From NCBI GenBank assembly GCA_017601345.1, contig JAFNIT010000006.1, positions 1-58,915 on the forward strand: a stretch of DNA of 58,915 nucleotides, read 5' to 3'. Of this stretch, positions 3,314 to 44,172 are shown one piece after another. Made by a program: the position numbers and the translations under genes. Position 1 is the first letter of the stretch; each line of letters opens with the position of its first letter. The notes beneath the pieces were generated by a model. It was not told the origin of the DNA, did not search any database, and saw only the letters and a program-made list of their open reading frames with translations. The stretch is from Candidatus Brockarchaeota archaeon. GTDB taxonomy: Archaea; Thermoproteota; EX4484-205; JAAOZP01.

Positions 3314-6055
3314 CTATTTGATTGTTGATAATGTTACCTCATACCATATTGTTTGATACTCCGGTCCTATCTTAAAAACCTTATACTCGCCCTCATTAAC
3401 TACTTTTACCTGACTAGTTCTCTTACCCCTATTGTCTAACGCCCATACTTCGAGATTCATCCCTGTCCTTATTCTTACAGTTCCGAGTATTCCCTCAGTG
3501 ATGGTTGGCGAATAGCCCCAGTCTGACCCGCAGGTAACTGGTCCGTTGTAGATATGGACACCGGTAAGAGAGTTCCGGAACCATGTTAAGAGACTGTTGC
3601 CTCCTTCATACGTACGTAAACGCATCCCCGTATTCGTAGTATACCCTGCGGCAATTAAGAGCATTCTTTTTGAAGCGGATATATCCTCGTCATCAAGGGT
3701 TGAAAGCGTTATTACACACCAACCATCTAGAAGAGTTTCTCCCACTTCTATAATAACACTGCCACATTTTAATGTTCTTCCTCCACCAAAACCAATTATT
3801 GCAATACTTCTCGAAGTATTTACAAGTATTAATCCTCTTTCTGAATCAGAAACGTTCCATATTATTTCTCCAGTGTCAGAACTATAAGTGTTTTGAGGCT
3901 GTTCAAAACTGATATCGTTGTTAAAAGTGTTTTCAATCGCAATCGCTGTCCTGTGAAGCAAAGATAGTAATGGGTTTAGTCCTGCAGTCCCCCCGTCGGG
4001 AAGCATCCAAGCATAGGCCTTTCCACCCGCTATGAGCATAATCTCATCCTTACTATCCATCTTGATAGTTACAAGCTTTTCTGCAGGTTTTACATCCCCC
4101 CTTACGAAAATAAGATGTGCAGGTATTATAGTTGCCATCTTAACCGGGTGCTGATCTATGTTGAAGAATCCTCTAATCTTTCTAGAATCCCAATTGCCCC
4201 TTGCCCCATAGTCGAAAAGGAATATCCCGTCCCAGTCTTGGAGTGCTGCATATGCTGCTAGGGTTAAGACTGTTTCAGCATCATACATGTTTGGCGAAGG
4301 ATGATTATACTCAGTAACGAAATGAGGCTTTCCATAGACTCTTTTGACAGCCAAGCCCGTAATAGTACTCTGCTGTGGATTATTAACCATGGGTTCATTA
4401 ACAACATACCAATTCGCAGGATCCCATGGGGTTCCTGGAAACCAGGGGTGCATCCAATATGCGTGTGTATCCACTATGTCAAGCTTAGCCATTATGTTAG
4501 GCGTACTACAGCCAACTGTAGTGCCTATTACGAGAGCTTTAACACCGAGCTCCTCCTTTATGAAACGATACATTTCCGTGAAGAAACTCTCCTCCAAGAA
4601 ATATAGGAATTCGATCCAGTCGTTCTTAGCAGCCGAGCTTCTCTTATTATACTCGGAAACGGGAAGTATTTGAACAGTCTTATTACTCAGGCTTTCACCA
4701 TCCATTAAGCCATATCCGTTAAAAAGCTTCATTGAAAAACAGGAAAACTGGTAGGTAGCAATATTTGCTCCAAGCCCTGAGATATCTAGCCTAGCATTAT
4801 CTTCGGATTGAGATGCAAGAAGAGCAATCTCATAATCTACCCAGTCTCTGGTAAGCGTTATATCAACTCTTTGGGAAAGCCCCCTCCATGGTTCATGAGC
4901 CTGAACAAGGCCTATGCTAACTCTAACATTCCTATCCGCCTTAGCGCTGAAACGTACTAAGTATGTTTCGCCTTCGACTATTCTTAACCCGGGTTGGTTA
5001 AACTGTACATGCCAGTTCTCCAAGCCCTTTCTCTTCACAGCGATCTCAAGAAATGCCCTCCCCCCTGCTTCCCTAGCTATCCTATAAGATGCTTCCGCGC
5101 CGTCGTGAACTTCTACAACCCATGAATCCAAACCCTTCTCAAAACAACTGTTTTTCAAAAGCTCGGCACTTTGACTAGGGCTTACTGGTGCTGCCCACGC
5201 CTTCCTAAGATTCTCATCGGAGCCGTATTTAGAGATAAGATAATTATTCCACTTCTCCTTAAGCGCATCCTTAAATATTTGCGGAAGCCTATCTATTGCA
5301 CCGTCCAGCCAAGAGTGTATTAAACCCTGCTCATTAACTATTTCAACAAAGGCCACAGCCGGGTCTTCGCCGTAGGTCATCCCCGTATAGGGATTTAAAT
5401 GAGTCAGGAGTTGTGTCGCATACTCCTTCTCTAAAAATTCAACCTCATCCATGAAAAATCCTAGGATCTGCTGTTCCTTCCAGTCCACGAGCCCGATCTC
5501 TGAAGGTAAACCGTCTGCAACCGTAAACCTTCTAGAGACTAAAAGATTCAGGTCCATGTATATCCCGTTTTCCTTAAGGCAGTGTATGAAGTAGTCCAGC
5601 CTGTCGAGAGCATTATCATTAAGCTTTCTAGTACCGCCTGTGGACTTATCGAAAATGTTGAAGCCTTCCCAACTAGCATCCATATGGTGGAACCGGACGG
5701 CATTCACTCCAAACTTAGCAAGCCGAGCAGCTACTCTCTCCGCCTCATCTTTTTCTGGAAAGGCTGCCCCACCACAGATATTAACTCCCAAAAACTTTAT
5801 TCTCTCTCCTCCAGCATAAAGATGCCCGTCTTCACCTACATAGACATGTCCAAGACTGCCAGCTGGTTTCCCATTATTCATGCTGACGATTGTTTCTTCA
5901 CCATCATCCCAAGGAAGGTAGAAGGGAAATGTTTTTCCACTAAGATTCTCGTTCTCCAATAACACTTTAAAGAATACGAATACTAAAAGTAGGATAATAG
6001 CCAGCAAAAGCGTTGAAAACAAGATGATTCTCTTCCTCATCTTGCTATTCTGCAT
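3314..6055 (-). CDS. Membrane-anchored clan GH-A glycoside hydrolase (GH5-like) with inserted CBM4/9-like module
   Basis: N-terminal TM helix; GVNAVRFHHMD, HLNPYTG, EIVNEQG (acid/base), VTEYNH (nucleophile); insert ELLKNSCFEKGLDSW...WHVQFNQ...GETYLVRFSAKAD. Confidence 0.8.
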   Translation of the reverse strand: MQNSKMRKRIILFSTLLLAIILLLVFVFFKVLLENENLSGKTFPFYLPWDDGEETIVSMNNGKPAGSLGHVYVGEDGHLYAGGERIKFLGVNICGGAAFPEKDEAERVAARLAKFGVNAVRFHHMDASWEGFNIFDKSTGGTRKLNDNALDRLDYFIHCLKENGIYMDLNLLVSRRFTVADGLPSEIGLVDWKEQQILGFFMDEVEFLEKEYATQLLTHLNPYTGMTYGEDPAVAFVEIVNEQGLIHSWLDGAIDRLPQIFKDALKEKWNNYLISKYGSDENLRKAWAAPVSPSQSAELLKNSCFEKGLDSWVVEVHDGAEASYRIAREAGGRAFLEIAVKRKGLENWHVQFNQPGLRIVEGETYLVRFSAKADRNVRVSIGLVQAHEPWRGLSQRVDITLTRDWVDYEIALLASQSEDNARLDISGLGANIATYQFSCFSMKLFNGYGLMDGESLSNKTVQILPVSEYNKRSSAAKNDWIEFLYFLEESFFTEMYRFIKEELGVKALVIGTTVGCSTPNIMAKLDIVDTHAYWMHPWFPGTPWDPANWYVVNEPMVNNPQQSTITGLAVKRVYGKPHFVTEYNHPSPNMYDAETVLTLAAYAALQDWDGIFLFDYGARGNWDSRKIRGFFNIDQHPVKMATIIPAHLIFVRGDVKPAEKLVTIKMDSKDEIMLIAGGKAYAWMLPDGGTAGLNPLLSLLHRTAIAIENTFNNDISFEQPQNTYSSDTGEIIWNVSDSERGLILVNTSRSIAIIGFGGGRTLKCGSVIIEVGETLLDGWCVITLSTLDDEDISASKRMLLIAAGYTTNTGMRLRTYEGGNSLLTWFRNSLTGVHIYNGPVTCGSDWGYSPTITEGILGTVRIRTGMNLEVWALDNRGKRTSQVKVVNEGEYKVFKIGPEYQTIWYEVTLSTIK

Positions 6056-6125
6056 TTTCTAGGCAGGCATAGGCATTTCGATTAGAGAGATTAAAATGCA
6101 TAAACATTCTGATTAAAAATCTTGT

Positions 6126-8030
6126 TTACCAAGGCCATATCCAGGAGGCTTTAGATATTAACGTGATTGTTGTTCCAATAGCTACTACGACCCCCATTCC
6201 GGCTGAGAACCCTGCCAGTACTATGCCTCTCATCGCATTCCATTTTTCTGGTCCCATTAGACGCGGCATAAGATATTTCCCAATAAGCGACATTATGAAC
6301 ACCATTATAGTGTAAGGCGGTATGGAATACATGCCACCGATCAACCCAATAGGGCTTAACGGTATCCCCGCTTTACTAATAACCGTAGCTATTACCCCCC
6401 ATATTATCGCGATACCCATGCCCATGAATATTTGGTCGATCTTTATCGCTATCTGCCGGGTTGCGAAAAGCGAGTCGCTGACAGCGTAGTTTGGCCATAT
6501 GCCCATTACATACGGGTATACGAATGAGGGTATTGGGGCTATTCTCCAGAAGAAGTCTGTGAAAAGCAACCCGAACGTGGCGATCAGTATGAAAGATATT
6601 ATCTGGGCCTTGTAAAAATCCATCGGCCTCGTTTTCGTATTATAAGCTACTCTCGTAGCATTAACCCAGTATGGAGTGGAGAATCCCGCTATAGCTGGTG
6701 TGAATATCCATCCTGCATAACCTTGGTAGGGGCTGTAGTATATCGTGCTCTTCCACATGTTGTATATGAAGTCTGCTGAAAGAAGTATGCCGAGCTCGCC
6801 GTAGAGCCTAGCCGCCACCGATCCGAGTGCGAAGCTCATGCCTATTGATACAACTAGGGGCAACCACACCGGAACACCCGGAACAAGCCAGATGTAGAGA
6901 AGAGCGCTTAGTGCTGAAGATATGAGGTACACAGATAGCAGTAGTTTCGGCGATGGGAAGCCGGGTCCTCCCTTCATCTTACTAAGCTTCGAAAGGGCCC
7001 TTACTATTTTTCTTAGAGATAGTAGGAACAGGTAAATAGACATTCCGAAGGAGAGCCCTATGAAGAGCGAAAGCCACAGCTTTAAACCTGCTCTTTGAAT
7101 AATCAGGAAAATATTCATTCCCGGGGTATATTCCTGAGCCCACTCTGGTGAGAAATCCTTGAAGGTTGTTATGGTGAGCGTATTGCCGAATACCCATGAA
7201 ATTAAGGATCCTACAAATAACGAGCCGGTTAAGGAGGGTGGTAGAACCATTCCATACAGGAAGCTCAACGGATCCGTCGCTATGCCTATTACTGCGCCTG
7301 GAAGGTTGGTCTGTGTATACTGAGTAAAATCTACCCACGGGTATGGTATTAACTGTGCTTGCTGTCCTGCGAGGAGCGGCACAAGATAGAGGAGCATTCC
7401 GTATATCGCACCCATGCTTAACGATGCTATGAAGTACAGCAGGTCCTGCGGCTTCCTTTCATCCAAAGTGTTTATCATGGCAGTATCAATTTGCGCGAAG
7501 GGGAATGGCAGAGGCTCCTCCTCTATGTAAAGGTATGAAAACACTATACTGAGAGAAAGCTCTGCAGCTAAGCCTAAGATTGAGAATGCTAAGTTCACAG
7601 CAATTGCGAAAAGCCAGTCTGGATGTAGAAGAGTCCTTAACTGGTGGGCTGCAGAGGATACGGGGGGAGACATCCACGTGGGCACGTAATCCCTCAGAGG
7701 AGTTCCGCCGAGCTTAAACTCCAAACTAAGAGGGAGATTAACATAGTAAGACCTGTAGATGAACCAGTAGTAGAGAGGCATGGCGCCGCCTATGCCTCCG
7801 ACAATAGAGTATATTATGAATAGCTCCTGTTTAGAAAGCCTGCCGCCGTATATCCTTGCTAAAGCCGTGAACAATATAGCCGTTACATACGTGGCTGCTA
7901 CGCTAACGCTAGAGCCCACTGCAAACCACAAGTATATGGATGCTGGTAGGAATATGAGCGCCGCCATAATCATTGCCAATATGCTTCTCCAAGTTAGTCC
8001 AGGGTAAAACTCAATCCTAGGCTCAGCCAG
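6126..8030 (-). CDS. OPT-superfamily-like polytopic transporter (ORF track start 7979; extended here to a probable CTG start at 8030)
   Basis: Many TM helices; GLTWRS N-terminal motif in the extension, LSKQEL, EEEPLPFP, PIPS motifs. Confidence 0.75.
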   Translation of the reverse strand: MAEPRIEFYPGLTWRSILAMIMAALIFLPASIYLWFAVGSSVSVAATYVTAILFTALARIYGGRLSKQELFIIYSIVGGIGGAMPLYYWFIYRSYYVNLPLSLEFKLGGTPLRDYVPTWMSPPVSSAAHQLRTLLHPDWLFAIAVNLAFSILGLAAELSLSIVFSYLYIEEEPLPFPFAQIDTAMINTLDERKPQDLLYFIASLSMGAIYGMLLYLVPLLAGQQAQLIPYPWVDFTQYTQTNLPGAVIGIATDPLSFLYGMVLPPSLTGSLFVGSLISWVFGNTLTITTFKDFSPEWAQEYTPGMNIFLIIQRAGLKLWLSLFIGLSFGMSIYLFLLSLRKIVRALSKLSKMKGGPGFPSPKLLLSVYLISSALSALLYIWLVPGVPVWLPLVVSIGMSFALGSVAARLYGELGILLSADFIYNMWKSTIYYSPYQGYAGWIFTPAIAGFSTPYWVNATRVAYNTKTRPMDFYKAQIISFILIATFGLLFTDFFWRIAPIPSFVYPYVMGIWPNYAVSDSLFATRQIAIKIDQIFMGMGIAIIWGVIATVISKAGIPLSPIGLIGGMYSIPPYTIMVFIMSLIGKYLMPRLMGPEKWNAMRGIVLAGFSAGMGVVVAIGTTITLISKASWIWPW

Positions 8031-8044
8031 AGTTCCTCACCTTT

Positions 8045-8102
8045 AAGGGTGAAGAGTTAAACACTTTAATAAAAACTTTTTTAGTAAAGGGTGAAAAGTT
8101 AA
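8045..8102. repeat. 16-bp direct repeat in a divergent promoter (candidate operator)
   Basis: AAGGGTGAAGAGTTAA at 8045-8060 and AAGGGTGAAAAGTTAA at 8087-8102, 15/16 identical, 42-bp period. Confidence 0.6.
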
Positions 8103-8127
8103 GATTTATTAAGAAGAGTAGAGAGAA

Positions 8128-11100
8128 ATGACTCCCAGGCGAAGGCCAATGCAAGTTAATGATTACAGGTCGAGTATAATGGCAATATTCTTAATTGCTC
8201 TCATCACGGTAATAGGGGAACCGTATTTTCTGACAGTATTGAGCTCAGCCTCCCCGCTTTCGACTACTCCGCCTTCTATGGTTGACGCTCAGAACCTCTT
8301 TCCATTAAACCTTCAGAGGGTGAGCAGCCTAATACAAGAAATCTCTTCCTTCGGGTCCAGGATGACTGGTTACCCAGGTTATTATAGAACACTCGATTAT
8401 CTTTACAATTATTTCAAGAACGAGTTGAAAATCACGCCCGTGGCTCATAGGTACAAGGTACTAGTGCCGTATGATGAAGAAACCTACATCGAAGTCTTGG
8501 AACCTTTTTCAGCTAGGGTCGATGCGTACGCGCTGTACCCGAACGGGGTTAATCCTTCTCCCACGCCCCCGGAAGGAGTTGTCGGAAGCCTGGTTTACGT
8601 TAAGGATGGTAGTTTAGAAAACTTCGATGAAAAAGATATTGAGGGGAACATCGTCGCCATGGATTTCAATTCTCAAGATAACTGGCTTAAGGCTGCTAAC
8701 CTTGGGGCTCAGGCCGTGGTATTCATCGAGCCGGAGTCAACCATGTACCCTGAATGCGAAGTCAAATTTCTAGATACTCCAATATGCTTTCCAAGGGTTT
8801 ATGTTAAAAAAGCCGATTGGGATCTTCTAAAGAACGCGGGTAAAATCAGGCTCGTCTCCAGGGTTTACTGGAAGGAGATCGAAGCAGTAAACCTGCTGGC
8901 GGTGATTAACGGAACAAGGTCCAGCGATATCATAATGCTTTCAACACATTTCGACTCGTGGTCTGTTGTTCCGGGACTGGCTTCAAGCAAAACCGAGCTC
9001 CTGCCACTAGCACTACTATTAGATTATGCGCACTATCTTAAGGATAATCCTCCATATTACACTGTTTGGATGGTCCTTTATTCTGGGCACTGGCAAGCCC
9101 TTAGGGGTGCGAGGGAATTCGTTGAGGACTACTTTTTCAGCGAAGACGTGATGAGTGGTAGAGTAACAATACGTGGAAACATAAACTTTGACCTCATAGC
9201 CAGCGACTGCGACGGCCTCCAAGTATTACAGTCCAGTTATTACTCTACTTATGGTGGAAATAGTATACATAATGCAGGAATGGGTGTAAGATTAAGATGG
9301 TTTGTATCTAAAATAACCGAAGACATACTGTTAAGAGACGAGGTTGCAGGATTCAGCCGGAACCGTCTAAAGGTCAATAACTCTCTAAACCTGGTAAGTA
9401 TGCAAGTTGCTCCAAGCGCATCTGGAGGATATAACATAAACCCGATCGGAACCGAACCCTATCCATATATGCTGGATTCAGAACCGGTCTCGATCTCCGG
9501 CATAGTGGCCTTCTCCATAACTACTAGGAGCTCAAACAGGCTTTACGTGGGTTCTCCAATAAGCGATGAGAAATATGCTGACCTTACTATTCTAGACCCA
9601 TATTTACAGCTTGCCCTATACATTACTAATGAGCTTTTGAACACAGAGTGGAGCGGCGTGGAAAGAGTTAAGCCGGAGAGATACCTATTAGTACAATCCA
9701 GAGGCTTCCCCGGCTACGCAACTCTCTACGGAAGGGTTGTAACCTACAATTTCAGCAAGGGATGGTACGATGGGGTTCCTAATGCGATAGTGGAGCTGAA
9801 GCTGAACACCCAGTGGGGGCCCTCGACATATAAGCTTAACCGGATAGTCATGAAAGCTGATGAGCAAGGGTATTTCACCGTCCATGGTGTACCTATTTCC
9901 GGCGCAGCAGCAGGCGGTAACGTTGTAATCCCGTTCTCCAGATGGGTTGCGCAAGCCTGGGTTTTCGACGACAAGGGCACTATCCTAATGGCTACTGACA
10001 TGGGCCAGTTCGGCATGAGCAGGTTTCCGCAGGAAGTGATTATCCTACACGAGCATGAAAACATTACTGTGGTGGTGGCTAAAGTAGTTTCAGTCGAGAT
10101 ATTTGATTTCGAACTACCAACCGAGCTCACCACGCCCAGCATAAGAGACCCCCGGGCTGGGACATTCGAGAGATGGAGGTTCTCGAGAGCAGAGCTCATA
10201 CCCTTAGAGTTTTACAGTAAAAGTATACCAATAAGTTTCGGCTCTTATTGTAACGGTTGGGAGCCCGTAGCCATAGCTTGGATACAGCCCAATGTAAGGT
10301 TTGCGGTTTTGGGTACGGGAGTTCTTCTGACAAACTCCTCAGCTGAGAACACAGAGGGGTATGGTCTCTACGCTGACTATGGGAGCAAGATAAGGGTAGG
10401 GTTTTCTGCTCTACAAATTGCTAGGGACCTGTACTACATATCCTACGGAAGGTATGCAGGTCTTGCTAATAAAAACGTTGGAAGCCCGAGTGCGAATGAG
10501 ACTCTTAACAAGGCGAAGGAGTATTTGGAAAAGGCTGAAGAATGCTTAAGCGAGAAGAAATATAGTGAAGCGTATGTTTGTGCGCTAATAGCTAGGGCCT
10601 ATGGTGCAAAGGCCTATGGAATGGAAGTTATGCCACTTATAAACGACTCAGCGAGATCCCTCCTTTACATATTCATCATAATAATACTGGGTGCCTTCTT
10701 CTTGGAAAAGATTTTGGTTCATGCGCAAGGTAATAAGCGTTTAATAGCTATCGTTGCATTCGGAGGATTCTTCATAGGGCTTTTCGCAATAGTTCATCCC
10801 GTTTTTAGCTTGATGAGCAATATATCATTGGGGATGATGGGCTCACTCATATTGGTGGTTTTACTAATTACAGTGATCATTCTGCTCTCACTTAGCGAGG
10901 AGGTTAGGTCAGGCATCGAGAAAAGAATCCTCGGCGTCCACAGGGCTGAGATAAGCCGGCTTGACACAGCTATGATATCCTTCTCTCTTGGAAGCGAACA
11001 CATGCGGCGTAGGCCTTTGCGTGCAATACTTGTCCTCTTAACGATGATTACCATGATTATCGCAATAACATCATTTACCTCTCTTACTCCTTCCCGAGTA

Positions 11101-12687
11101 TCCAGGGATGTCGTCTGGCCAACTACGTATCCGCCGAGCCTCAATGAAATTCTGATAAAGCAGGGGAGGGGCGTGCCCCCAGGCATGCTTTCTGAAAAAG
11201 TTTTTAGCGTAGCGAGTATGATGGCTGGAGACGAATACTATGTTCTGCCACGAGTATGGTTGTATGCTAACTTGGATAGGGTTTTGTCAGCAGCATACTT
11301 TAGGGTTTACAGTGCTAGCAACTACACTACGGTAAATGCTCTCATGGGAATAACTCAGGAAGACTTCAATCTGATTTTTGAAAAGATTAAGGGAAACATT
11401 ACTCTGGGAAGCAGGATTCTTGGCGAAGACTCTGCAATAATATCTAGAACGTTGGCGAAAACGCTGAGCGTCGAAGTAGGGGATACCATAAGGGTTGCAG
11501 GAGTTAACTTTACAGTAATGGGGATCGTAGAATCCCCTGACCTCATCGACTACATTATTGAAGCAGACGGCTGGAATATTTTCCCAGGGAACCCGATTTA
11601 CTTCCCGACTATAAGTAGGGATCAAACGCAGCAGGCTCCGGGTGCTATCCCGCAGAACCTCGGAATCTCAACCACTATTCTAATACCTTATGAGATGGCT
11701 CTAAGACTAGGAGGATATATTGCTACAATAACCTTGGTTCCTAAACAACCCACTTCCTACGAGGATATGTTGAAGCTGGCTAGAGAAATCGCGTATGCGA
11801 CAGACCTGTCAATATACATCTCTTATGAAGGTTCTTCTCGGAGAATGTCTACTTACTCGAGCATCCTCCTAGGAGGGTGGGAAATAATATGGATTATATT
11901 AATCATAGGCGCTTTAAACATTTTCACCACAGTCTTAGGCAGCTTGAAAGAGAGGGCTAGGGAAGTCTACATCTTCAGCGTAGTAGGCTTGTCCCCGATG
12001 GGTGTCACAGTGTTCTTCATGACGGAAGTTCTGGTTTACGCTGTGATAAGCACCCTAATAGGGTATGTCAGCGGCTACTTCGTAACGAGACTATTCATGC
12101 TACTGGGCATTCTACCATCTACTCACGTTTTCAACTTCGCATCTCTCTTCACAATCCTGGGTACTCTAATAGTAATAGCCTCAGCTCTCGCAGCCTCCTC
12201 GTATCCCTCCTACATCGCTTCCAGAGTTGTTACACCATCGTTGGAAAGAAGATGGAAGTTTAAGACGAAGCCTAAGGAAGACGAGTGGGAAATACCCCTG
12301 TTGATAAGCATCCCTACTTTAGAGGAGTGCAAGGGGGTCATGGCATACTTGTACGAGTACTATAGCGGAGGAGGGGCTGTGAAGGAAGGTATACACATGG
12401 TTAAGGATCTTTACCCGCCGGACTACGAGAATCTTTCGCTAAGCCTGACGGCAAGCCTATCGCCTTTCGAAGTAGGCGTCTTGCAAGCAGTCAATGTCTC
12501 AGCAAAGTTCAACGAGAGCATAAAGAGGTACGAAGTCATCCTCCACCTCAAGAGGCTATCAGGCCCGCAGAATGTTTGGGAGACTTCGAACTACAGGTTC
12601 GTAAACGATTTGAGAAAACAACTATTAATGTGGGGATCATTCTCAGCCTCTGAGAAAGCAAAGTATATCTCTAAGGCAGCAGGCTAG
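8128..12687 (+). CDS. Large membrane protein: PA + degenerate M28 peptidase-fold ectodomain, TM bundle, MacB/FtsX-like permease, soluble C-terminal domain
   Basis: Signal-like N-terminus; SRMTGYPG, GNIVAMDF (PA), STHFDSW (M28); MRRRPLRAILVLLT and SLKERAREVYIFSVVGLSP (FtsX); VVTPSLERRW. Confidence 0.8.
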   Translation: MTPRRRPMQVNDYRSSIMAIFLIALITVIGEPYFLTVLSSASPLSTTPPSMVDAQNLFPLNLQRVSSLIQEISSFGSRMTGYPGYYRTLDYLYNYFKNELKITPVAHRYKVLVPYDEETYIEVLEPFSARVDAYALYPNGVNPSPTPPEGVVGSLVYVKDGSLENFDEKDIEGNIVAMDFNSQDNWLKAANLGAQAVVFIEPESTMYPECEVKFLDTPICFPRVYVKKADWDLLKNAGKIRLVSRVYWKEIEAVNLLAVINGTRSSDIIMLSTHFDSWSVVPGLASSKTELLPLALLLDYAHYLKDNPPYYTVWMVLYSGHWQALRGAREFVEDYFFSEDVMSGRVTIRGNINFDLIASDCDGLQVLQSSYYSTYGGNSIHNAGMGVRLRWFVSKITEDILLRDEVAGFSRNRLKVNNSLNLVSMQVAPSASGGYNINPIGTEPYPYMLDSEPVSISGIVAFSITTRSSNRLYVGSPISDEKYADLTILDPYLQLALYITNELLNTEWSGVERVKPERYLLVQSRGFPGYATLYGRVVTYNFSKGWYDGVPNAIVELKLNTQWGPSTYKLNRIVMKADEQGYFTVHGVPISGAAAGGNVVIPFSRWVAQAWVFDDKGTILMATDMGQFGMSRFPQEVIILHEHENITVVVAKVVSVEIFDFELPTELTTPSIRDPRAGTFERWRFSRAELIPLEFYSKSIPISFGSYCNGWEPVAIAWIQPNVRFAVLGTGVLLTNSSAENTEGYGLYADYGSKIRVGFSALQIARDLYYISYGRYAGLANKNVGSPSANETLNKAKEYLEKAEECLSEKKYSEAYVCALIARAYGAKAYGMEVMPLINDSARSLLYIFIIIILGAFFLEKILVHAQGNKRLIAIVAFGGFFIGLFAIVHPVFSLMSNISLGMMGSLILVVLLITVIILLSLSEEVRSGIEKRILGVHRAEISRLDTAMISFSLGSEHMRRRPLRAILVLLTMITMIIAITSFTSLTPSRVSRDVVWPTTYPPSLNEILIKQGRGVPPGMLSEKVFSVASMMAGDEYYVLPRVWLYANLDRVLSAAYFRVYSASNYTTVNALMGITQEDFNLIFEKIKGNITLGSRILGEDSAIISRTLAKTLSVEVGDTIRVAGVNFTVMGIVESPDLIDYIIEADGWNIFPGNPIYFPTISRDQTQQAPGAIPQNLGISTTILIPYEMALRLGGYIATITLVPKQPTSYEDMLKLAREIAYATDLSIYISYEGSSRRMSTYSSILLGGWEIIWIILIIGALNIFTTVLGSLKERAREVYIFSVVGLSPMGVTVFFMTEVLVYAVISTLIGYVSGYFVTRLFMLLGILPSTHVFNFASLFTILGTLIVIASALAASSYPSYIASRVVTPSLERRWKFKTKPKEDEWEIPLLISIPTLEECKGVMAYLYEYYSGGGAVKEGIHMVKDLYPPDYENLSLSLTASLSPFEVGVLQAVNVSAKFNESIKRYEVILHLKRLSGPQNVWETSNYRFVNDLRKQLLMWGSFSASEKAKYISKAAG

Positions 12688-13351
12688 TATACGTAAAACC
12701 TTCTACTTTTTTCGCTAACCCTAATACCGTTAGATAACTTCTCCCAGTGCCCCCGCCGCCGAAAGGCATACCGTACATTAAATGAGCCCTCAAAATCCAT
12801 GAGACGGACGGAGGAGACTCTAAGTATTCCTTAACCAGCCTGCCGATTACTAGGCCCCTGCCGGAGGCAAGCATGTAGTATTCGAGCAGTTCAGCAGGTA
12901 TTAGCCTTGGAAATATTTCTAAAAGCTCCAACCTGCTCTTCTTAATGTCCTTCTCAACATCCTTATCGTTCTTCAACATTGAGAAAAGCTCTCCCCCATC
13001 GGGCAGTGGAATCTTATTCTTAAGTGCGGGGAGCTCGCTCCACCTCCTTATCTCCACCCTCTTAATCAATACTCCCTTCACCTCCAGTTCCACGGATTCC
13101 GACAACATTTTCTTCAACAATTGAGAACGCTCCCTGTCTCGAACTCTGTCCTCCGGGATATCAAGTATTCCAATCATCTCGATCTTCATGTCAAGACTAA
13201 ACTGCATCCTCCTCACTATAATCATCAAAGTAAAATTTGGCTGTTTAATCGGCTTAACTAGGAGGTTCCCTCTCTGCGTTTCTTCTAAGGATACTTCAAA
13301 TCGCTCTAAAGTCTTCTTGACAGCTCTTATCCAAGACATTCTTATTGCCAC
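12671..13351 (-). CDS. Hypothetical protein
   Basis: 226-aa ORF with normal composition, convergent 17-bp overlap with the preceding gene; no motif recognised. Confidence 0.65.
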   Translation of the reverse strand: MAIRMSWIRAVKKTLERFEVSLEETQRGNLLVKPIKQPNFTLMIIVRRMQFSLDMKIEMIGILDIPEDRVRDRERSQLLKKMLSESVELEVKGVLIKRVEIRRWSELPALKNKIPLPDGGELFSMLKNDKDVEKDIKKSRLELLEIFPRLIPAELLEYYMLASGRGLVIGRLVKEYLESPPSVSWILRAHLMYGMPFGGGGTGRSYLTVLGLAKKVEGFTYTSLLP

Positions 13352-13501
13352 GAAGCTACCTACAAGTATTATTTTAAAATTAACAGCCTCAAATGCCCGA
13401 TTTTACTGACGCAACACTGTGTTAAACCGTTTGAATGAGGTTTTCAGCATATTTTTCAACACTGATAAAGAAAATTAGAGTTGCCATTAATGATTTTTTT
13501 A

Positions 13502-13546
13502 GCAAAACTTAAATACTTACTATCCGTATAACATATACGAAGGTGA
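13502..13546 (+). promoter_or_regulatory. BRE/TATA-like box and Shine-Dalgarno upstream of 13556
   Basis: CAAAAC-TTAAATA at about 13503-13515 and AGGTGA at 13541-13546; same layout upstream of the paralog (TTTAAATA, minus strand 32299-32306). Confidence 0.55.
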
Positions 13547-13555
13547 AAATATAGT

Positions 13556-15655
13556 ATGGCTACGGAAGTAGAGTTAAAAACAGGCCTAACCGTAAGATCA
13601 CTTGCCTTATCAATTCCCTTAACGCTGATATTCGCAGTCCTCTCGGCCATAATGGGTACCTACACTGATAAGACCGGGACGTTCGGAACCTTCATCCTCC
13701 CGATGATTTACATCGTGATCATCATGGAGCTCCTTGGGAGAGCAAGCCCTAAGGCGAGGCTGACCCCTCAGGAATACGTTTTCGTATTCACAATGTTCAC
13801 ATGCTTGGGTATGCACAGTTATCTAACGATGCATGCTGCAGCTCACCATAATCCTATAAACATGCCCTTGTACGGAGCTTTTAGCGACTATCTAGCGTTT
13901 GGAATAGGTGACTTAAGAGACCCCTGGAGTAAAGCTGTTCCCTCTGTAATAGTCGCACCTGAGCCGGTTCGCTTCGATATTGCGACGATGCTCCTCAACG
14001 GGAGGGCTCCGGGTCAAGCAGTACCATGGGGATACTTAATGACTTCTATAGTGTACTGGGGACTGATATACTTGTTCTACTCTTTCATAAGCATATTCGT
14101 AGCCTTCACCGTAGGAAGGGTATGGATAGAGGAGGAGAGACTAGTGTTCCCACTAGCATTACCCTCACTCCACCTGTTCAAGGAGGCGGGGGAGGTTGAT
14201 CCGACCACGAATAAATCTAGAATCTTCGACTTCAAGCTGGCAACCACGAAAGTGTTCTGGGGAATGTTCCTCATCGGCGCGCTCGGCGGCATAATCCCCG
14301 TTGTAGTTGAGCTCTGGCCAGCGTTCCCAGCATCAGCTTGGTGGGGTGAGAACAGGGTTGACATGCCGTTTCTAGCGCAGGCAATACCCGGTGCCTACGC
14401 ATCCTTCATATTCTTCATACCTCAAATAGCCGTCGGGCTAGTCATGCCCAATGACGCTTTGATAACCCTAATCATCGGATGGGTAATATTCGGCGTAATA
14501 TACCAGGGACTAGCAGTGGCCATGGGCTGGATAGCGTACACGCCAGGCATGGAGTTCCTCTGGCCTTGGGATGGCGGCGCGGGGACAACACTAATGCCGT
14601 TCCCCTACAGGCTCGTCGGCTCAACGGGTTTAGCACTCGGCATAGCTGTATGGTGCATCTACACTCAAAGGAAGAGGTTCCTAAGCGTGTTCTCATCTCT
14701 TTGGAAAGGCGGTGAGGAGAGAGGTCTTTCATTGAGGATTGTTTCACTACTGGTTCTAATAGGCGCCTTCGGATGGTATGCGTTGATGCTCGTAGAAGGA
14801 GCTGACCCGCTCGTCGCCCTGCTAATACCTTTATGGGGCTTCTTGTTCAACGTTTTCTACGCGAGAATATACGCTGAGGTGTTCTGGCACGTGGGCACTG
14901 GCTGGGGACAAGGCACAGCTGTCTGGGAGCCAACATACCTAGTTGGCGTAGGTTTGAGAGGATGGCCTGCTCCCGAGGCAGTAACATGGAACACGCCTAT
15001 GACTGACCCCGGCTGGTTCACGATAGCCAGGAACATCGCTAACGTCGGCCACTGGAACATCTCATTCTCCCCGCTTGCATCGGGACACATGGTGACGCTT
15101 TACAAGCTTGCCTACGATCTTAAGATGAGGCTTAAGGACCTGCTGATTGCCATCATCATAAGCATACTGATACTCCTATTCATATTCGTACCACTCGTAT
15201 CCTACTTCATGTTCAATACGAAAGGCGGGATAAGCCAGCTTGGTGACATGTACACATGGTGGCCGTGGATTGCGCAGGGGATGTATCACAGGGGTAGAGC
15301 TGCACCAACCGGCATGACTATAGAATACTCATTGCTGGTAGTCAACCTACTCGGTTTCGTGCTGGCTATAGTGCTCTACATACTCAAGCTGAAGGTGCCG
15401 ATCTTCTGGTTCATAAACGTCCCGGCGCTCTCCATAGCCATGACCATACCAACATACATGTGGATGACTTCGCTGATTGCTTTGATCATAAAGTTCGTCG
15501 TAATAAGGACTGTGGGTATTAAGAAGTACGAGGAGTATGCTATACCCATTGTAGCAGGCTGGATACTCGGCTTCGGAGCAATGTGGCTGCCGGCTGCAAT
15601 ACTAAACCTAGTCGGGCCGACAGCAACAAGGTTCTCAACGCTATTCGCACCGTAA
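13556..15655 (+). CDS. Polytopic membrane protein, DUF6785/OPT-like, copy A
   Basis: GLTVRS, LTPQE, PWG, WIEEERLVFPLALP motifs; many TM helices. Confidence 0.75.
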   Translation: MATEVELKTGLTVRSLALSIPLTLIFAVLSAIMGTYTDKTGTFGTFILPMIYIVIIMELLGRASPKARLTPQEYVFVFTMFTCLGMHSYLTMHAAAHHNPINMPLYGAFSDYLAFGIGDLRDPWSKAVPSVIVAPEPVRFDIATMLLNGRAPGQAVPWGYLMTSIVYWGLIYLFYSFISIFVAFTVGRVWIEEERLVFPLALPSLHLFKEAGEVDPTTNKSRIFDFKLATTKVFWGMFLIGALGGIIPVVVELWPAFPASAWWGENRVDMPFLAQAIPGAYASFIFFIPQIAVGLVMPNDALITLIIGWVIFGVIYQGLAVAMGWIAYTPGMEFLWPWDGGAGTTLMPFPYRLVGSTGLALGIAVWCIYTQRKRFLSVFSSLWKGGEERGLSLRIVSLLVLIGAFGWYALMLVEGADPLVALLIPLWGFLFNVFYARIYAEVFWHVGTGWGQGTAVWEPTYLVGVGLRGWPAPEAVTWNTPMTDPGWFTIARNIANVGHWNISFSPLASGHMVTLYKLAYDLKMRLKDLLIAIIISILILLFIFVPLVSYFMFNTKGGISQLGDMYTWWPWIAQGMYHRGRAAPTGMTIEYSLLVVNLLGFVLAIVLYILKLKVPIFWFINVPALSIAMTIPTYMWMTSLIALIIKFVVIRTVGIKKYEEYAIPIVAGWILGFGAMWLPAAILNLVGPTATRFSTLFAP
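13956..14101. repeat. 146-bp block identical to reverse complement of 31714-31859
   Basis: Base-by-base comparison by eye. Confidence 0.9.
14168..14268. repeat. 101-bp block identical to reverse complement of 31547-31647
   Basis: Base-by-base comparison by eye. Confidence 0.9.
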
Positions 15656-15714
15656 AAACACTAAACCCCTTCCTCTTTTTCTTCCTAAAATTTTCCAACC
15701 TTTTCTAACTCTAA
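15452..15714. repeat. 263-bp block identical to reverse complement of 30110-30372 (3' coding end plus 59 nt downstream)
   Basis: Base-by-base comparison; identity extends past the stop codon. Confidence 0.92.
15661..15714 (+). terminator. Pyrimidine/oligo-T tract, probable archaeal terminator (duplicated at about 30110-30163 on the minus strand)
   Basis: CCCCTTCCTCTTTTTCTTCCTAAAATTTTCCAACCTTTTCT right after the stop. Confidence 0.55.
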
Positions 15715-15789
15715 ACCATGTTAAGAGCGTATCTTGAACTATTTAAATCGTAGTGAAAAATTTAAAGACTACAAAAATCTGTTAGAAGA

Positions 15790-17232
15790 TTGATGAAGCC
15801 AGGTAAGCATGCTTACTTAATCATTCTCTTTGTAATATTTCTACTGCTATTGTTCTCGTCTTACAGCTCGTTTACCTGTTTCCAATCCCTTAGGGGGATC
15901 GAGAGCCAGCTTGATGAGTATGATAAGGATTTCAAATCCTTGGCAAGCCTTATATCCGGTTTATATTACGACGATTATGGTGGAGTATTGCACGCGAAAG
16001 GAAGAGCCACAGGCTTCTTCCATGTTGAGAAGATTGGTGATGTATGGTGGATAATAAACCCTGAGGGGAACGTTTTTCTTTCGAAAGGAGTCAATGCAAT
16101 AAACTTTCAAGGAGATTACTCGCCAGCACTCGGGTATAGTCCTTATAACAGAGCTCTGTTAAGGAAATACGGAAACTCAGAGACTTGGGCTAGGGCGACA
16201 GTTACAAGACTTCGCGAATATGGTTTTAATACTATTGGTGCATGGTCAAGCGAGGAACTTTTTACTCAGGGAATGCCTTACACGATCATTCTTAACGTCG
16301 CGGCCAGGGCGGGAGCAGAATGGGTTAGCGGCAGGGTTACGGACTTCTTCTCAGAAGATTTTGAAAGGATTGCAAACGAAGTGGCTGAGGAAATATGTGC
16401 CACTAGGAGGGATGATCCTTATCTTTTAGGCTACTTCACTGACAATGAGCTAAGATGGTCTCCTGATTGGAGATCGTCTAAACATCTTTTCGACGACTAT
16501 ATTGCTCTGGAAAAGGATGCACCGGGTAAAAGAGCTTTAGTCCAATATTTAGAGAGCAAGTATGGAAGCATAAGAGAGCTCAATGCGAAATGGGGTATGA
16601 ACTTCAACTCTTTTGAAGACATTCTCGATACTTATACACTTCCCCCAAGCAGTTTAATAGATCCTGATAGGCTAGGCTTCTTGGAGGTCGTTTCTAGAAG
16701 GTATTTCCAAGTTTGTCATGATGCAATAAGAAGGCACGATCCGAACCATATGATTTTAGGGTGCAGATTCGCATTTAGACCTCCCGACGAGGTTTTGAAA
16801 GGATGCATAGGCTATATCGATGTAATTTCAATGAACAACTATGGATTGGAGCCTCCTGTCGAAGACCTTAGGGAAATGCATAATTTAACAGGCTTGCCGA
16901 TAATGATAACAGAGTTTTCGTTTAAAGCAATGGATTCAGGCCTGCCAAATACGCGAGGAGCCGGGTCCCCATTAGCAACGCAGAAAGACAGAGCAGAACG
17001 ATTTGAAAAATATGTTAGTAAACTCCTGTCTGAGCCTTACATAGTCGGTTATCACTGGTTCCAATACGCAGACCAGCCGGCGCAGGGAAGGTTTGACGGG
17101 GAAAATAGCAATTTCGGTCTTGTTAACATAGAGGATGAGCCCTGGACGATTTTAGTTACAAGGGCTACAGTCGTCAATCTTAAAGCTGAACTCATACATG
17201 CAAGGTCCGTTGAAAAATCTAATCCGCCTTAG
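15790..17232 (+). CDS. Membrane-anchored/secreted glycoside hydrolase, GH50 (beta-agarase-like) catalytic domain
   Basis: ATGFFHVEKIGDVWW, GFNTIGAWS, GYFTDNELRW, DPNHMILGCRF, ITEFSF, VGYHWFQYADQPAQGRFDGENSNFGLV. Confidence 0.8.
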   Translation: MMKPGKHAYLIILFVIFLLLLFSSYSSFTCFQSLRGIESQLDEYDKDFKSLASLISGLYYDDYGGVLHAKGRATGFFHVEKIGDVWWIINPEGNVFLSKGVNAINFQGDYSPALGYSPYNRALLRKYGNSETWARATVTRLREYGFNTIGAWSSEELFTQGMPYTIILNVAARAGAEWVSGRVTDFFSEDFERIANEVAEEICATRRDDPYLLGYFTDNELRWSPDWRSSKHLFDDYIALEKDAPGKRALVQYLESKYGSIRELNAKWGMNFNSFEDILDTYTLPPSSLIDPDRLGFLEVVSRRYFQVCHDAIRRHDPNHMILGCRFAFRPPDEVLKGCIGYIDVISMNNYGLEPPVEDLREMHNLTGLPIMITEFSFKAMDSGLPNTRGAGSPLATQKDRAERFEKYVSKLLSEPYIVGYHWFQYADQPAQGRFDGENSNFGLVNIEDEPWTILVTRATVVNLKAELIHARSVEKSNPP

Positions 17233-17499
17233 TTTTTAGTAAGAAAGGTATATTTACAACACTAAATCCTTTTCTATCCGTCACGAGGGTTTCCGATAAG
17301 AATTGCTTAAGATACAACATTCAATAAAATTCGATGAATTGAGCTTAAGCCTGATTCGAAGGCTGCTGCATGCTTTCAGTATCGATTATGACGAGACTCT
17401 AACCATGTTCTTAACCGACTTATAAAACATTTAAAACGATTTACTGTACGTGTTAAAACTATAAATATTGTAAAAACTTAACATGATTGGTGTGGAAGG

Positions 17500-19803
17500 A
17501 TGGGGGACAAGCCTGTTTACCTAGATTCTTCAGCCCCGGTGGATCTAAGAGTGAAAGACCTTTTGAGAAGAATGACTCTGGAAGAGAAGATAGCTCAACT
17601 CCAGAGTCTCTGGCTGAGAATAGGAGGAGAAGCACTTACTGAGGATAAGTTTAAAGAATTGGCTGGAAAAGGTATCGGGGAAATAACGCGTGTCTCAGGA
17701 GCATTAGGAGTTAAACCGGGAGAAGGTGCAAGAATAGTTAATGAAATCCAGAAGTTTCTAGTTGAAGAGACTAGGCTAGGCATACCAGCTATAATCCACG
17801 AGGAGTGTTTAACCGGCTTCTTAGCAATGGGCGCCACAGCCTTTCCTCAAGCAATAGGCTTAGCCAGTACGTGGAATCCCGAGCTCATTGAACAAGTTGC
17901 CTCTGTAATAAGGAGGCAGATGAGAGCATGCGGGGCCCATCAGGGTCTTGCACCAGTCCTCGACGTTGCGAGAGACCCGAGATGGGGGAGAACAGAAGAG
18001 ACCTACGGGGAGGATCCTTATCTTGTCGCACGCATGGGGGTTTCCTACGTTAAGGGTCTTCAAGGAGAGGATTTGAGAAACGGCATAATTGCTACTGCTA
18101 AGCATTTTGCCGCCCACGGTTTCCCGGAGGGGGGTAGGAACTGTGCACCCGTTCACGCTACTCCGAGAGAGTTTAGGGAAGTATTTTTATTCCCATTCGA
18201 AGCCGTGGTTAAGCTTGCTGGAGTATACTCGATCATGAATGCATATCACGATATAGATGGTGTTCCGTGCGCTTCTTCAAGGGCTCTTCTCACCGACATT
18301 CTCAGGGGCGAGTGGGGTTTCAACGGATTTGTAGTATCGGACTATTTCGCCATAAGAATGCTTGAAAACTTCCATTATACTGCTTCAGACGCTAAAGACG
18401 CTGCCGTAAAGGCGATTATCGCAGGCATAGACGTTGAACTACCTTCAGTCGACTGTTACGGTAAGCCCCTTCTAGATGCGGTGAGCGAAGGTCTCGTACC
18501 CGAGGGAATAATAGACACTGCTGTATCGAGGGTTTTAAGGGCTAAGTTCCTACTGGGCTTGTTCGAAAACCCTTATGTTAACGCTGAGGAAGCTGCCGGG
18601 CAACTTGATAGAGAAGAGGATAGGGCTTTAGCTCTCAGGGCGGCTAGAGAATCCATAGTTCTCCTTAAGAACAATGGTGTTTTGCCAATACCTAGCTCAG
18701 TAAGGTCCATAGCTGTAGTCGGTCCTAATGCTGACAGTAAGAGGAATCTTCATGGAGACTATAGTTTTACTGCCCACATGGATAGTAAAGACAGGCCTCC
18801 CGGCTACGACGAAATATTTCAAGAAGGTGCTGTGAGGACTGTAAGCATACTCCAGGGTATTAGAAACAGAGCTCCCCCTGGTGTTAATATTAACTATGCA
18901 AAGGGCTGCGACATAACGGGGGATTCGAAAGAAGGCTTCAAAGAGGCTGTTGATATTGCTATGAAATCAGACGTAGTGATAGCTGTAATGGGTGAAAAAT
19001 CCGGCATGTTTGAAACAGGCGTTTCAGGAGAGGGCTGCGATCGCTACTCGCTCAAGCTTCCCGGAGTGCAGGAGGACCTAATGAAAGAGCTCTGTAACAC
19101 AGGAAAGCCCATAGTTTTAGTCTTGGTAAACGGTAGGCCGCTTTCACTCGGATGGATAGCTGAGAAATGTTCGGCTATAATCGAAGCATGGTACCCGGGC
19201 GAGGAAGGAGGTAATGCTGTAGCAGACGTTCTTTTCGGACATTATAATCCTGGAGGGAAGCTCCCAATAACGTTTCCAAAAGACGTGGGGCAGATACCGT
19301 TAAACTACAGTAGAAGACACTCTTCCTTTAGGAACTACGTGGGAATGGATGCTAAACCATTATTCCCGTTTGGACACGGACTAAGCTATACGCGTTTCGA
19401 ATACAGCTCGCTAGAAATAAACCCTAGCAACATTAGCCCCATGGGGCAGGTTAAAATACGCTTCAAACTGAAGAATTCGGGAGAGAGAACGGGCGACGAG
19501 GTTGCTCAACTCTATGTGAGAGATACGGTTGCCAGTGTTGCTAGGCCAGTAATGGAGCTTAAAGGATTTAAAAGAGTGAGTTTAAAACCGGGAGAGGTAA
19601 AAGAAGTAGAGTTCACTCTCTTTGCGGAGCAGCTTGCATTCTACGACGAATATATGAGGCTGGTTGTTGAACCGGGGGTTTTCGAAGTAATGATTGGAAG
19701 CTCCTCTGAAGACATAAGACTGAGAGGCGAGTTTAAAGTAGTTGGAGAAACTAGAGTAATTAAGAATAGAACCATTTTCTTCAGCGAAGTCGAAGTAAAG
19801 TAA
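17500..19803 (+). CDS. Glycoside hydrolase family 3 beta-glucosidase/beta-xylosidase with Fn3-like domain, cytoplasmic
   Basis: MTLEEKIAQL, RDPRWGRTEETYGEDP, AKHF, VVSDY nucleophile, PFGHGLSY; no signal peptide. Confidence 0.95.
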   Translation: MGDKPVYLDSSAPVDLRVKDLLRRMTLEEKIAQLQSLWLRIGGEALTEDKFKELAGKGIGEITRVSGALGVKPGEGARIVNEIQKFLVEETRLGIPAIIHEECLTGFLAMGATAFPQAIGLASTWNPELIEQVASVIRRQMRACGAHQGLAPVLDVARDPRWGRTEETYGEDPYLVARMGVSYVKGLQGEDLRNGIIATAKHFAAHGFPEGGRNCAPVHATPREFREVFLFPFEAVVKLAGVYSIMNAYHDIDGVPCASSRALLTDILRGEWGFNGFVVSDYFAIRMLENFHYTASDAKDAAVKAIIAGIDVELPSVDCYGKPLLDAVSEGLVPEGIIDTAVSRVLRAKFLLGLFENPYVNAEEAAGQLDREEDRALALRAARESIVLLKNNGVLPIPSSVRSIAVVGPNADSKRNLHGDYSFTAHMDSKDRPPGYDEIFQEGAVRTVSILQGIRNRAPPGVNINYAKGCDITGDSKEGFKEAVDIAMKSDVVIAVMGEKSGMFETGVSGEGCDRYSLKLPGVQEDLMKELCNTGKPIVLVLVNGRPLSLGWIAEKCSAIIEAWYPGEEGGNAVADVLFGHYNPGGKLPITFPKDVGQIPLNYSRRHSSFRNYVGMDAKPLFPFGHGLSYTRFEYSSLEINPSNISPMGQVKIRFKLKNSGERTGDEVAQLYVRDTVASVARPVMELKGFKRVSLKPGEVKEVEFTLFAEQLAFYDEYMRLVVEPGVFEVMIGSSSEDIRLRGEFKVVGETRVIKNRTIFFSEVEVK

Positions 19804-27957: not shown

Positions 27958-28067
27958 TCTAAAACAGTAATATATAATGCTAGATTTTCGAACAGTATTT
28001 CTAGGCTTTTAAAGTACTGCTTTTTGAACTAAAAGATTTATTTTCAACAACTTATTTTTTTCTTAAA

Positions 28068-29117: not shown

Positions 29118-29215
29118 ACTAAAAAAATTGACGCGTGCTTTCAAAAAGTGATCGACGCTTTATCGCGGGAAGGTTTAAAAGAAATTTCAACTCAATGGGA
29201 TAATGTGCCAAAGGT

Positions 29216-30070: not shown

Positions 30071-30168
30071 GATTAGTGTCTTTAGAGATAGGAATGATTT
30101 TATTTACTGTTAGAGTTAGAAAAGGTTGGAAAATTTTAGGAAGAAAAAGAGGAAGGGGTTTAGTGTTT

Positions 30169-42526: not shown

Positions 42527-42535
42527 TCGGGCGGG

Positions 42536-44170: not shown

Positions 44171-44172
44171 AT

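Follow-up and report, generated by a model that had tools for sequence, protein, structure and literature searches.

Contig JAFNIT010000006.1 of an archaeal metagenome-assembled genome (MAG) carries, at positions 3314 to 19803 of the 58,915-nt stretch that was analysed (the window), a locus in which three genes for large membrane proteins lie among genes for glycan-cutting enzymes. Two of the three proteins, OPT-A and OPT-B, are full-length paralogs, and OPT-A is predicted to have the fold of OPT/Yellow-Stripe transporters. The third, FUS, is a giant protein in which an M28-like extracellular head is joined to a MacB/FtsX-type membrane unit, and no ATPase gene accompanies it. The three genes recur together in archaea and bacteria as a conserved membrane module. 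Quite possibly this module is an accessory-assisted importer of the OPT type that takes up oligomers, here probably beta-glycan fragments, although its assembly into a complex, its cargo, and the direction and energy source of transport are all matters of inference.

The source genome is a 1.18-Mb MAG, 77% complete, whose closest protein relatives are labelled Thermoproteota/Thermofilaceae. A first-pass annotation of the window had named seven open reading frames (ORFs) in the locus and described surface-anchored hydrolases and a cytoplasmic glycoside hydrolase (GH) of family GH3 as flanking three large membrane proteins. In the ORF listing and the family scans all seven were found where it had placed them, and the arrangement was borne out. 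What it overlooked is a second OPT-B paralog further along the window. These genes are listed below, with the evidence for each assignment in brackets.

3314..6055, minus strand: membrane-anchored protein with a carbohydrate-binding module (CBM) of family CBM4 and a GH5-like part, 913 aa (Pfam, PDB sequence match, hydropathy)
6126..8030, minus strand: OPT-A, permease with about 14 transmembrane (TM) segments and a predicted OPT/Yellow-Stripe fold; canonical ORF 6126-7979, 617 aa (alignment, model)
8128..12687, plus strand: FUS, 1519 aa (Pfam, hydropathy, model)
12671..13351, minus strand: small cytoplasmic ORF, 226 aa, no family (phmmer conservation)
13556..15655, plus strand: OPT-B, DUF6785 permease, 699 aa (Pfam, hhalign)
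15790..17232, plus strand: membrane-anchored GH50 homolog, 480 aa (PDB sequence match, hydropathy)
17500..19803, plus strand: cytoplasmic GH3 glycosidase, 767 aa (Pfam, NCBIfam, hydropathy)
30169..32259, minus strand: second OPT-B paralog, 696 aa, DUF6785 and DUF6784 (Pfam, 77% identity to OPT-B)

Two OPT-type permeases and a giant FtsX-type protein

OPT-A and OPT-B each have about 14 hydrophobic segments according to hydropathy. An alignment of 22 OPT-A relatives can be matched over its whole length to one of 20 OPT-B relatives (hhalign probability 100%, E=1e-39, 593 columns, 20% identity), so that the two proteins are paralogs over their full length. The motifs that the first-pass annotation had seen in both OPT-like types (GLT.RS, L..QE and E..L.FP) are real and rank among the best conserved columns of the alignments; E..L.FP is nearly invariant in each family. 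OPT-A has no Pfam or NCBIfam match, DUF6785 included. OPT-B is a member of DUF6785 (PF20581), which it matches at 69 bits (63.3 bits for the paralog at 30169; cut-off 25). Against the OPT family itself (PF03169) OPT-B scores 22.0 bits, below the cut-off of 25.8, and a precomputed PF03169 label is found on a few OPT-A homologs. PDB sequence searches with OPT-B, and with profiles of OPT-A and OPT-B, gave nothing usable.

The fold is indicated by structure prediction. The AlphaFold model of OPT-A (pLDDT 87.7, pTM 0.86) has structures of barley Yellow Stripe 1 (HvYS1) as its only real PDB matches (7wst and 7wsr; E=2.4e-12, TM score 0.65-0.69, 15% identity), the next matches having TM scores of 0.16 or less. 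The similarity to 7wst_A extends over the whole length of the model, which points to an OPT/Yellow-Stripe fold for OPT-A, and the hhalign result ties OPT-B to the same family. HvYS1 is a homodimer in which the scaffold domains hold the subunits together, and its transport mechanism is elevator-like and coupled to protons (PMC9691689). Because OPT-A and OPT-B are paralogs with the fold of this dimeric protein, an OPT-A/OPT-B heterodimer is plausible, and by analogy the two would most likely form a heterodimeric secondary importer. The pair therefore resembles OPT/Yellow-Stripe-like transporters (TC 2.A.67) in fold, in number of hydrophobic segments and perhaps in dimeric state. It differs from them in its low identity to HvYS1, in the lack of a Pfam match for OPT-A and the below-threshold score of OPT-B, in the encoding of two distinct paralogs side by side, and in being accompanied by a giant protein of FtsX type, a feature not known from any described OPT system.

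The start codon of OPT-A is likely to be non-canonical. The N-terminal motif GLTWRS is more than 90% conserved among OPT-A relatives, and in the window it is encoded in frame upstream of the first ATG, GTG or TTG (7980-8030, minus strand), after a stop at 8037-8039. This position makes a start at CTG 8030 or ATT 8015 likely. A Shine-Dalgarno-like motif, GGTGAGG, precedes the CTG, and the two closest relatives have the same 636-codon open frame. The OPT-A family is small but real: in a set of 1.84 billion proteins its profile retrieved 363 representative clusters at E ≤ 1e-30.

The second OPT-B gene has neither OPT-A nor FUS beside it. Near it (27124-32259) are genes for a methyltransferase, a 277-aa anchored protein and a DUF6786 protein (28068-29117), for which PDB sequence search returned no relative.

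In FUS, hydropathy and modelling give the order N-terminal anchor, extracellular head of about 800 residues (M28-like part and beta-sandwich), three extra TM helices, a MacB/FtsX unit with its periplasmic core domain (PCD) and, on the cytoplasmic side, a Bet v 1-like domain. Pfam matches are to M28 (PF04389; 26.4 bits, cut-off 21.3), FtsX (39.2 bits) and, just under threshold, MacB_PCD (25.8 bits, cut-off 27). The model of residues 400-1519 (pLDDT 84.9) shows a 4-TM FtsX fold with PCD at residues 944-1374 that resembles MacB and LolC (Z 15.2 to 5lj7; PCD Z 12.2, rmsd 3.4). An Ig/prealbumin-like beta-sandwich makes up part of the head (Z 8.4-8.9), and the fold of the cytoplasmic C-terminal domain is Bet v 1/START-like (118-129 aligned residues, Z 8.8). 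Neither this model nor the Pfam matches of FUS contain a nucleotide-binding domain.

A 4-TM FtsX unit with a PCD places FUS close to the type VII ABC systems (MacB, LolCDE, FtsEX, YtrEF, HrtBA, YbbAP). It differs from these in having no nucleotide-binding domain fused or adjacent, in its three extra TM helices, 800-residue head and C-terminal Bet v 1-like domain, and in its genetic coupling to secondary-transporter genes. FUS may be an accessory subunit of the OPT pair, built on an ATPase-less scaffold of the MacB/FtsX type.

FUS scores as a member of M28, and most of its 83 homologs carry the M28 label. However, alignment to 3iib places H-W where the catalytic Glu-Glu pair of M28 would be; the pair is found at this position in 0 of 40 FUS homologs, and the first His ligand varies (H/Y/N/R/S). 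Peptide cleavage is accordingly unlikely, and the head is probably not a peptidase. Catalytically inactive M28B proteins, of the transferrin receptor type, do exist. FUS is like them in having an N-terminal anchor and an M28-fold head that lacks the catalytic residues, and a PA domain is present in 7 FUS homologs. Unlike them, FUS continues into a polytopic FtsX unit. In public records FUS homologs are named 'M28 family peptidase', 'FtsX-like permease' or 'antimicrobial peptide ABC permease'.

A FtsX-type protein of about 1000 aa, without an M28 head, adjoins several modules (L008:3745-6771, L028:747-3710, L026:2469-5687, L007:17008-19998 and L014:16122-19178; loci are numbered with L and contigs with C) and also occurs alone in the genome of the window (contig C8:10937-14002). 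It is a possible partner for FUS, which has a single FtsX unit.

A sister of the FUS membrane unit stands next to a recognisable importer in the same genome. The single BPD_transp_1 pair of the MAG lies on contig C6, in an operon of the Opp type that encodes two permeases together with two oligo_HPY ATPases. A protein of 1785 aa (L063, 5411-14323) is encoded by the gene at the head of this operon, in the place usually taken by a binding-protein gene (compare the canonical operon in L062). Its head is GH2 beta-mannosidase-like and includes the catalytic barrel (5n6u, E=1.4e-19), and its PCD-FtsX anchor is 29% identical to FUS residues 839-1506. The place of this GH2-headed protein in front of an Opp-type operon supports a view of the PCD-FtsX unit as the anchor or adaptor of an extracellular head that works for the importer next to it. 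No SBP_bac_1 match was found in the MAG, at 77% completeness. 'Peptide-transporter' families of hyperthermophiles, of the Opp/Dpp type, can reportedly carry sugars. In contrast to the trio, Opp/Dpp-type oligosaccharide importers are ATP-driven and have soluble or lipid-anchored binding proteins.

Conservation of the trio and the enzymes around it

Of 401 genomes sampled from the phylum, 63 have OPT-A, 86 have FUS and 46 have OPT-B, with matches side by side on the same contigs. From 29 genomes, 40 Thermoproteota loci were picked for having at least two of the parts together, L026 and L027 being picked as a split case. All three genes are present in 35 of the 40 (divergent DUF6785 members were counted via Pfam). 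Where OPT-A and FUS are co-directional, the two genes often touch or share a few bases (L005, L006, L017, L038, L039, L042), which suggests that their translation is coupled. Moreover, 31 of the 63 OPT-A-positive genomes have at least three OPT-A copies, and a multi-copy module fits nutrient uptake with diversified substrates.

The module extends to bacteria. A search that started from a Kiritimatiellota relative of OPT-A found nine loci, spread over Kiritimatiellota, Planctomycetota, Lentisphaerae, Desulfobacterales and Anaerolineales. Seven of these have a FUS homolog (six full-length and one truncated where its contig ends; E 1e-149 to 4e-300) and four have OPT-B. The complete trio has the order OPT-B, FUS, OPT-A (Planctomycetota, Lentisphaerae, Anaerolineales), and a Kiritimatiellota locus has FUS followed by OPT-A only. 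The trio is a conserved three-gene membrane module and not a chance cluster, which bears out this part of the first-pass annotation.

No cognate ATPase gene travels with the trio. The absence of an ABC ATPase or solute-binding protein from the window had already been remarked on, and it holds, as 0 of the 45 window ORFs scanned match ABC_tran or a solute-binding family; of the 27 ABC_tran matches in the genome, none is on the contig of the window. Among the 40 Thermoproteota loci, ABC_tran occurs in the flanks of nine, mostly inside other recognisable ABC systems. Thus the fused or adjacent ATPase of type VII ABC systems was found neither in FUS, nor among the window ORFs, nor as a companion in the 40 flanks. 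In the source genome an ATPase gene does adjoin the small canonical FtsX genes, whereas no MacB-type ATPase lies next to the giant ones.

The 226-aa ORF lies antisense between FUS and OPT-B and overlaps the 3' end of FUS by 17 nt. It has no Pfam or NCBIfam match and is conserved in related modules (phmmer 3.9e-69 in L003, 2.4e-31 in L020 and, weakly, 1.1e-6 in L019).

Three genes for glycan-cutting enzymes flank the trio in the window. The 913-aa protein has an N-terminal hydrophobic anchor (residues 6-38). Its earlier description as a surface GH5-like/CBM protein is solid for the CBM (CBM_4_9 in Pfam, E=5.1e-11; 1gui, a laminarinase CBM4, E=1.2e-10) and weak for the GH5-like part, a match to the GH5 mannanase 3pz9 at E=1.3e-3 over residues 147-242. 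Its gene is on the same strand as OPT-A and 70 bp downstream of it, and the ortholog stays beside OPT-A in L003. The 480-aa protein, with an N-terminal anchor at residues 1-32, is a homolog of GH50 beta-agarases (4bq2, E=1.1e-52 over residues 113-465; 5z6p, E=5e-49). The third enzyme has GH3 N (2.9e-84) and GH3 C (9.7e-61) domains and a Fn3-like domain, with beta-xylosidase/arabinosidase as best NCBIfam family (811 bits, under the cut-off of 1050 for that family). Hydropathy revealed no N-terminal hydrophobic segment, signal or anchor in this GH3 protein.

OPT-B, GH50 and GH3 are consecutive on the plus strand, and gene spacing and strand suggest shared transcription in the locus. A relative of the same genus, 73% identical (L003), preserves the GH50/GH3/CBM4 layout around the trio. 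Related sequence is present in a sediment metatranscriptome library (run X9), with contigs 90-95% identical to the window over FUS and OPT-B (8281-15655) and parts of other genes; these contigs carry no information on transcription, strand or level. The best DNA sequencing run contained a 0.20 share of the sampled window words.

A proposed uptake route and its alternatives

In the window, carbohydrate-active enzymes (CAZymes) are clustered with transporter genes in the manner of a polysaccharide-utilisation locus, the GH50, GH3 and CBM4/GH5-like genes flanking the trio. In the route proposed here, the anchored CBM4/GH5-like and GH50-like enzymes would cut a beta-linked glycan outside the cell. 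The FUS head would capture the resulting oligomers, or position them, for the OPT pair. The OPT-A/OPT-B heterodimer would import them, driven by an ion gradient, and the cytoplasmic GH3 enzyme would complete their hydrolysis inside the cell. An extracellular capture component that serves an ion-driven permease recalls TRAP and TTT systems, by analogy only; there is no relation in sequence or fold, and the putative capture part of the trio is integrated in the membrane on a MacB-type scaffold.

Enrichment of CAZyme genes near the trio had been put forward as a check on this idea, and the outcome is mixed. At the level of proteins there is an excess. Among 331 flank ORFs of at least 150 aa in the 40 loci (reach about 5.5 kb), 25 encode proteins of GH, polysaccharide lyase (PL) or CBM type, compared with six of 299 ORFs in control regions, 20 stretches of 20 kb taken arbitrarily in these genomes (odds ratio (OR) 4.0, p=0.001). 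The excess persists when phmmer-only and BNR_2 calls are removed (21/331 vs 6/299, OR 3.3, p=0.009) or when the same-genus locus L003 is left out (22/324 vs 6/299, OR 3.6, p=0.006), all three p-values being too optimistic because the sampled genomes are related. Within 5 kb it shows no sharp fall-off (8/93 of rank-1 neighbours, 6/71 of rank 2 and 5/59 of rank 3). Flank families vary from locus to locus (GH3, 4, 10, 30, 31, 42, 57, 127, 130 and 2, NamZ and PL1). With paralogous modules thus standing beside different enzyme sets, the substrate probably differs between modules, as it does between polysaccharide-utilisation loci. TrmB-type sugar regulators are found beside three modules (L010, L036, L040), and in bacteria GH20, GH130, BNR_2 and a weak GH42-like protein occur in four of the eight loci with flanks. 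Paralogous transporter modules beside varying GH sets and sugar regulators are also a feature of SusC/SusD polysaccharide-utilisation loci. The trio differs from those in having neither SusC nor SusD and no outer membrane, and in that a GH gene lies near no more than 17 of 40 modules.

Several modules (L014, L022, L029, L031, L032) are near URO-D-like, MttB-like and B12-binding radical-SAM genes, but such genes are found in controls too (L049, L061), and their recurrence probably reflects mere abundance in these genomes. TldD/PmbA, URO-D and the sugar-metabolism families AP_endonuc_2, GFO_IDH_MocA and BadF/G had been candidates for module-specific partners and were dropped, as each also occurs in control regions.

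A number of points weigh against uptake of glycan oligomers. The excess of GH-type genes is modest, and counted per locus or region it is not significant (17/40 vs 4/20, OR 3.0, p=0.15). There is no clear GH gene within about 5.5 kb of 23 of the 40 modules, among them the closest ortholog locus outside the genus (L020), and the trio is therefore not specific to polysaccharide loci. Furthermore, the genomes are GH-rich in general, and two of the control regions that hold a GH gene are on module contigs. The link of the trio to GH genes is moderate and not universal. Some modules adjoin peptidase genes (TldD, S58, M20, M55) or cell-wall-salvage genes (NamZ, AnmK), so that peptides or glycopeptides may be among the substrates. 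The known cargo of OPT members is peptides or metal chelates and does not include sugars. The FtsX family is known for ATP-driven exporters and for mechanotransducers, and an ATPase for FUS could be encoded elsewhere. Finally, the Bet v 1-like domain of FUS hints at a lipid ligand.

One alternative is that the trio is a three-part importer of peptides or glycopeptides, for example muropeptide-like fragments, in which the M28-like head binds peptide ends and the GH genes are mere neighbours in a GH-rich genome. An origin of the head in M28, the PA domain of some homologs and the many modules without GH neighbours are consistent with this, as are the particular genes found at several modules: M20 (L009), M55 with two NamZ genes and a BadF/G kinase (L011), TldD and S58 (L034), AnmK (L029), and SIS with BadF/G (L032). 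Peptides and metal chelates are also what the OPT family, to which HvYS1 belongs (PMC9691689), is known for. Such a role is nevertheless unlikely, given that the M28 catalytic pair is missing from all 40 FUS homologs and the first His ligand varies, that TldD/PmbA occurs in control regions as well (L052, L058, L059), that GH-type neighbours are about four-fold enriched, that OPT-A lies so close to the CBM4/GH5-like gene on the same strand, and that the sister anchor protein bears a GH2 head.

The lack of an ATPase gene in the window and beside the module weighs against a role in the envelope or in export, which has a similarly low probability. FUS would here act like MacB, LolCDE or FtsEX, powered by an ABC ATPase encoded elsewhere, with the OPT-like pair acting on a lipid-linked or amphipathic molecule that the Bet v 1-like domain binds. 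The relatives of the FUS membrane unit with solved structures are all type VII ABC systems, which export or transmit force, and Bet v 1/START folds typically bind hydrophobic ligands. Envelope genes do occur near modules (MurJ and GT1 in L064, undecaprenyl-diphosphate synthase in L015, GT2 in L017, L032 and L065), and one Lentisphaerae locus has FtsX and ABC_tran 1.5 kb downstream. However, the ABC_tran genes in flanks belong mostly to other ABC systems, small canonical FtsX genes of the source genome have an adjacent ATPase while giant ones have no MacB-type one, the presence of several paralogous copies in a genome is more in line with nutrient uptake than with housekeeping in the envelope, and the sole solved OPT-fold protein is an importer. 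It is less probable still that the juxtaposition is due to chance, in which case the role of the trio would be unrelated and the GH enzymes would depend on another importer, for instance the Opp-type ABC system of contig C6. That the genome encodes this importer beside the GH2-headed anchor protein, that the GH association is not universal and that an incomplete MAG may keep other importers out of view would all agree with chance; the layout kept in L003, the spacing and strand of the genes, and a GH enrichment that is seen over 40 loci and recurs in bacteria argue against it.

Each part of the trio comes from a known superfamily. The combination of an OPT-fold pair, an ATPase-less FtsX scaffold and a dead-enzyme head is undescribed; no description of this gene set, no paper on DUF6785, DUF6784 or DUF6786, and no structural paper on prokaryotic relatives of the OPT family was found in a literature search that did not cover subscription journals. 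A bolder proposition, and a doubtful one, is that the trio represents a new transport class, in which an ATPase-less MacB/FtsX scaffold with a dead-enzyme receptor head feeds a heterodimeric, ion-driven elevator of OPT fold. Paralogous modules, with heads and neighbours that differ, would be the counterpart of the transporters of polysaccharide-utilisation loci in archaea and PVC-group bacteria, which lack SusC/SusD, and the GH2-headed sister protein would show the same anchor also feeding an ABC importer.

Uptake of GH products by uncultured Thermoproteota (Thermofilaceae, Bathyarchaeia) and PVC-group bacteria is largely unknown. If the trio does import oligomers as proposed, it would be a new importer architecture, conserved, multi-copy and ATPase-less, made of OPT-fold permeases and a MacB-type scaffold. 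DUF6785/DUF6784 and the unmodelled OPT-A family would gain a function, and the names 'M28 family peptidase' and 'antimicrobial peptide ABC permease' would be misleading. Metabolic reconstructions of sediment and hot-spring archaea would then be missing an uptake route.

Other genes of the window

Family scans found no sugar regulator within 3314-19803. A gene for an ArsR/LexA-like helix-turn-helix protein lies outside it, at 1507-2049. No tRNA genes were found in the window. A scan for sigma-70 promoters gave 34 sites compared with 27.9 ± 4.6 expected, which is no excess, and eight terminator-like sites compared with 14.4; such a scan is uninformative for an archaeon.

Directly downstream of the GH3 gene is a NurA-HerA-Mre11-Rad50 operon (19917-26003), by which the organism can be recognised as an archaeon, and the module adjoins such an operon in L003 and L008 as well. 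Further along, a row of genes at 41161-46272 encodes an AsnC-type regulator, a KaiC-like ATPase, a protein with a central domain of the GH3 (acyl-acid amido synthetase) type and a HisKA-like membrane protein with seven TM segments, a set that is unusual for an archaeon.

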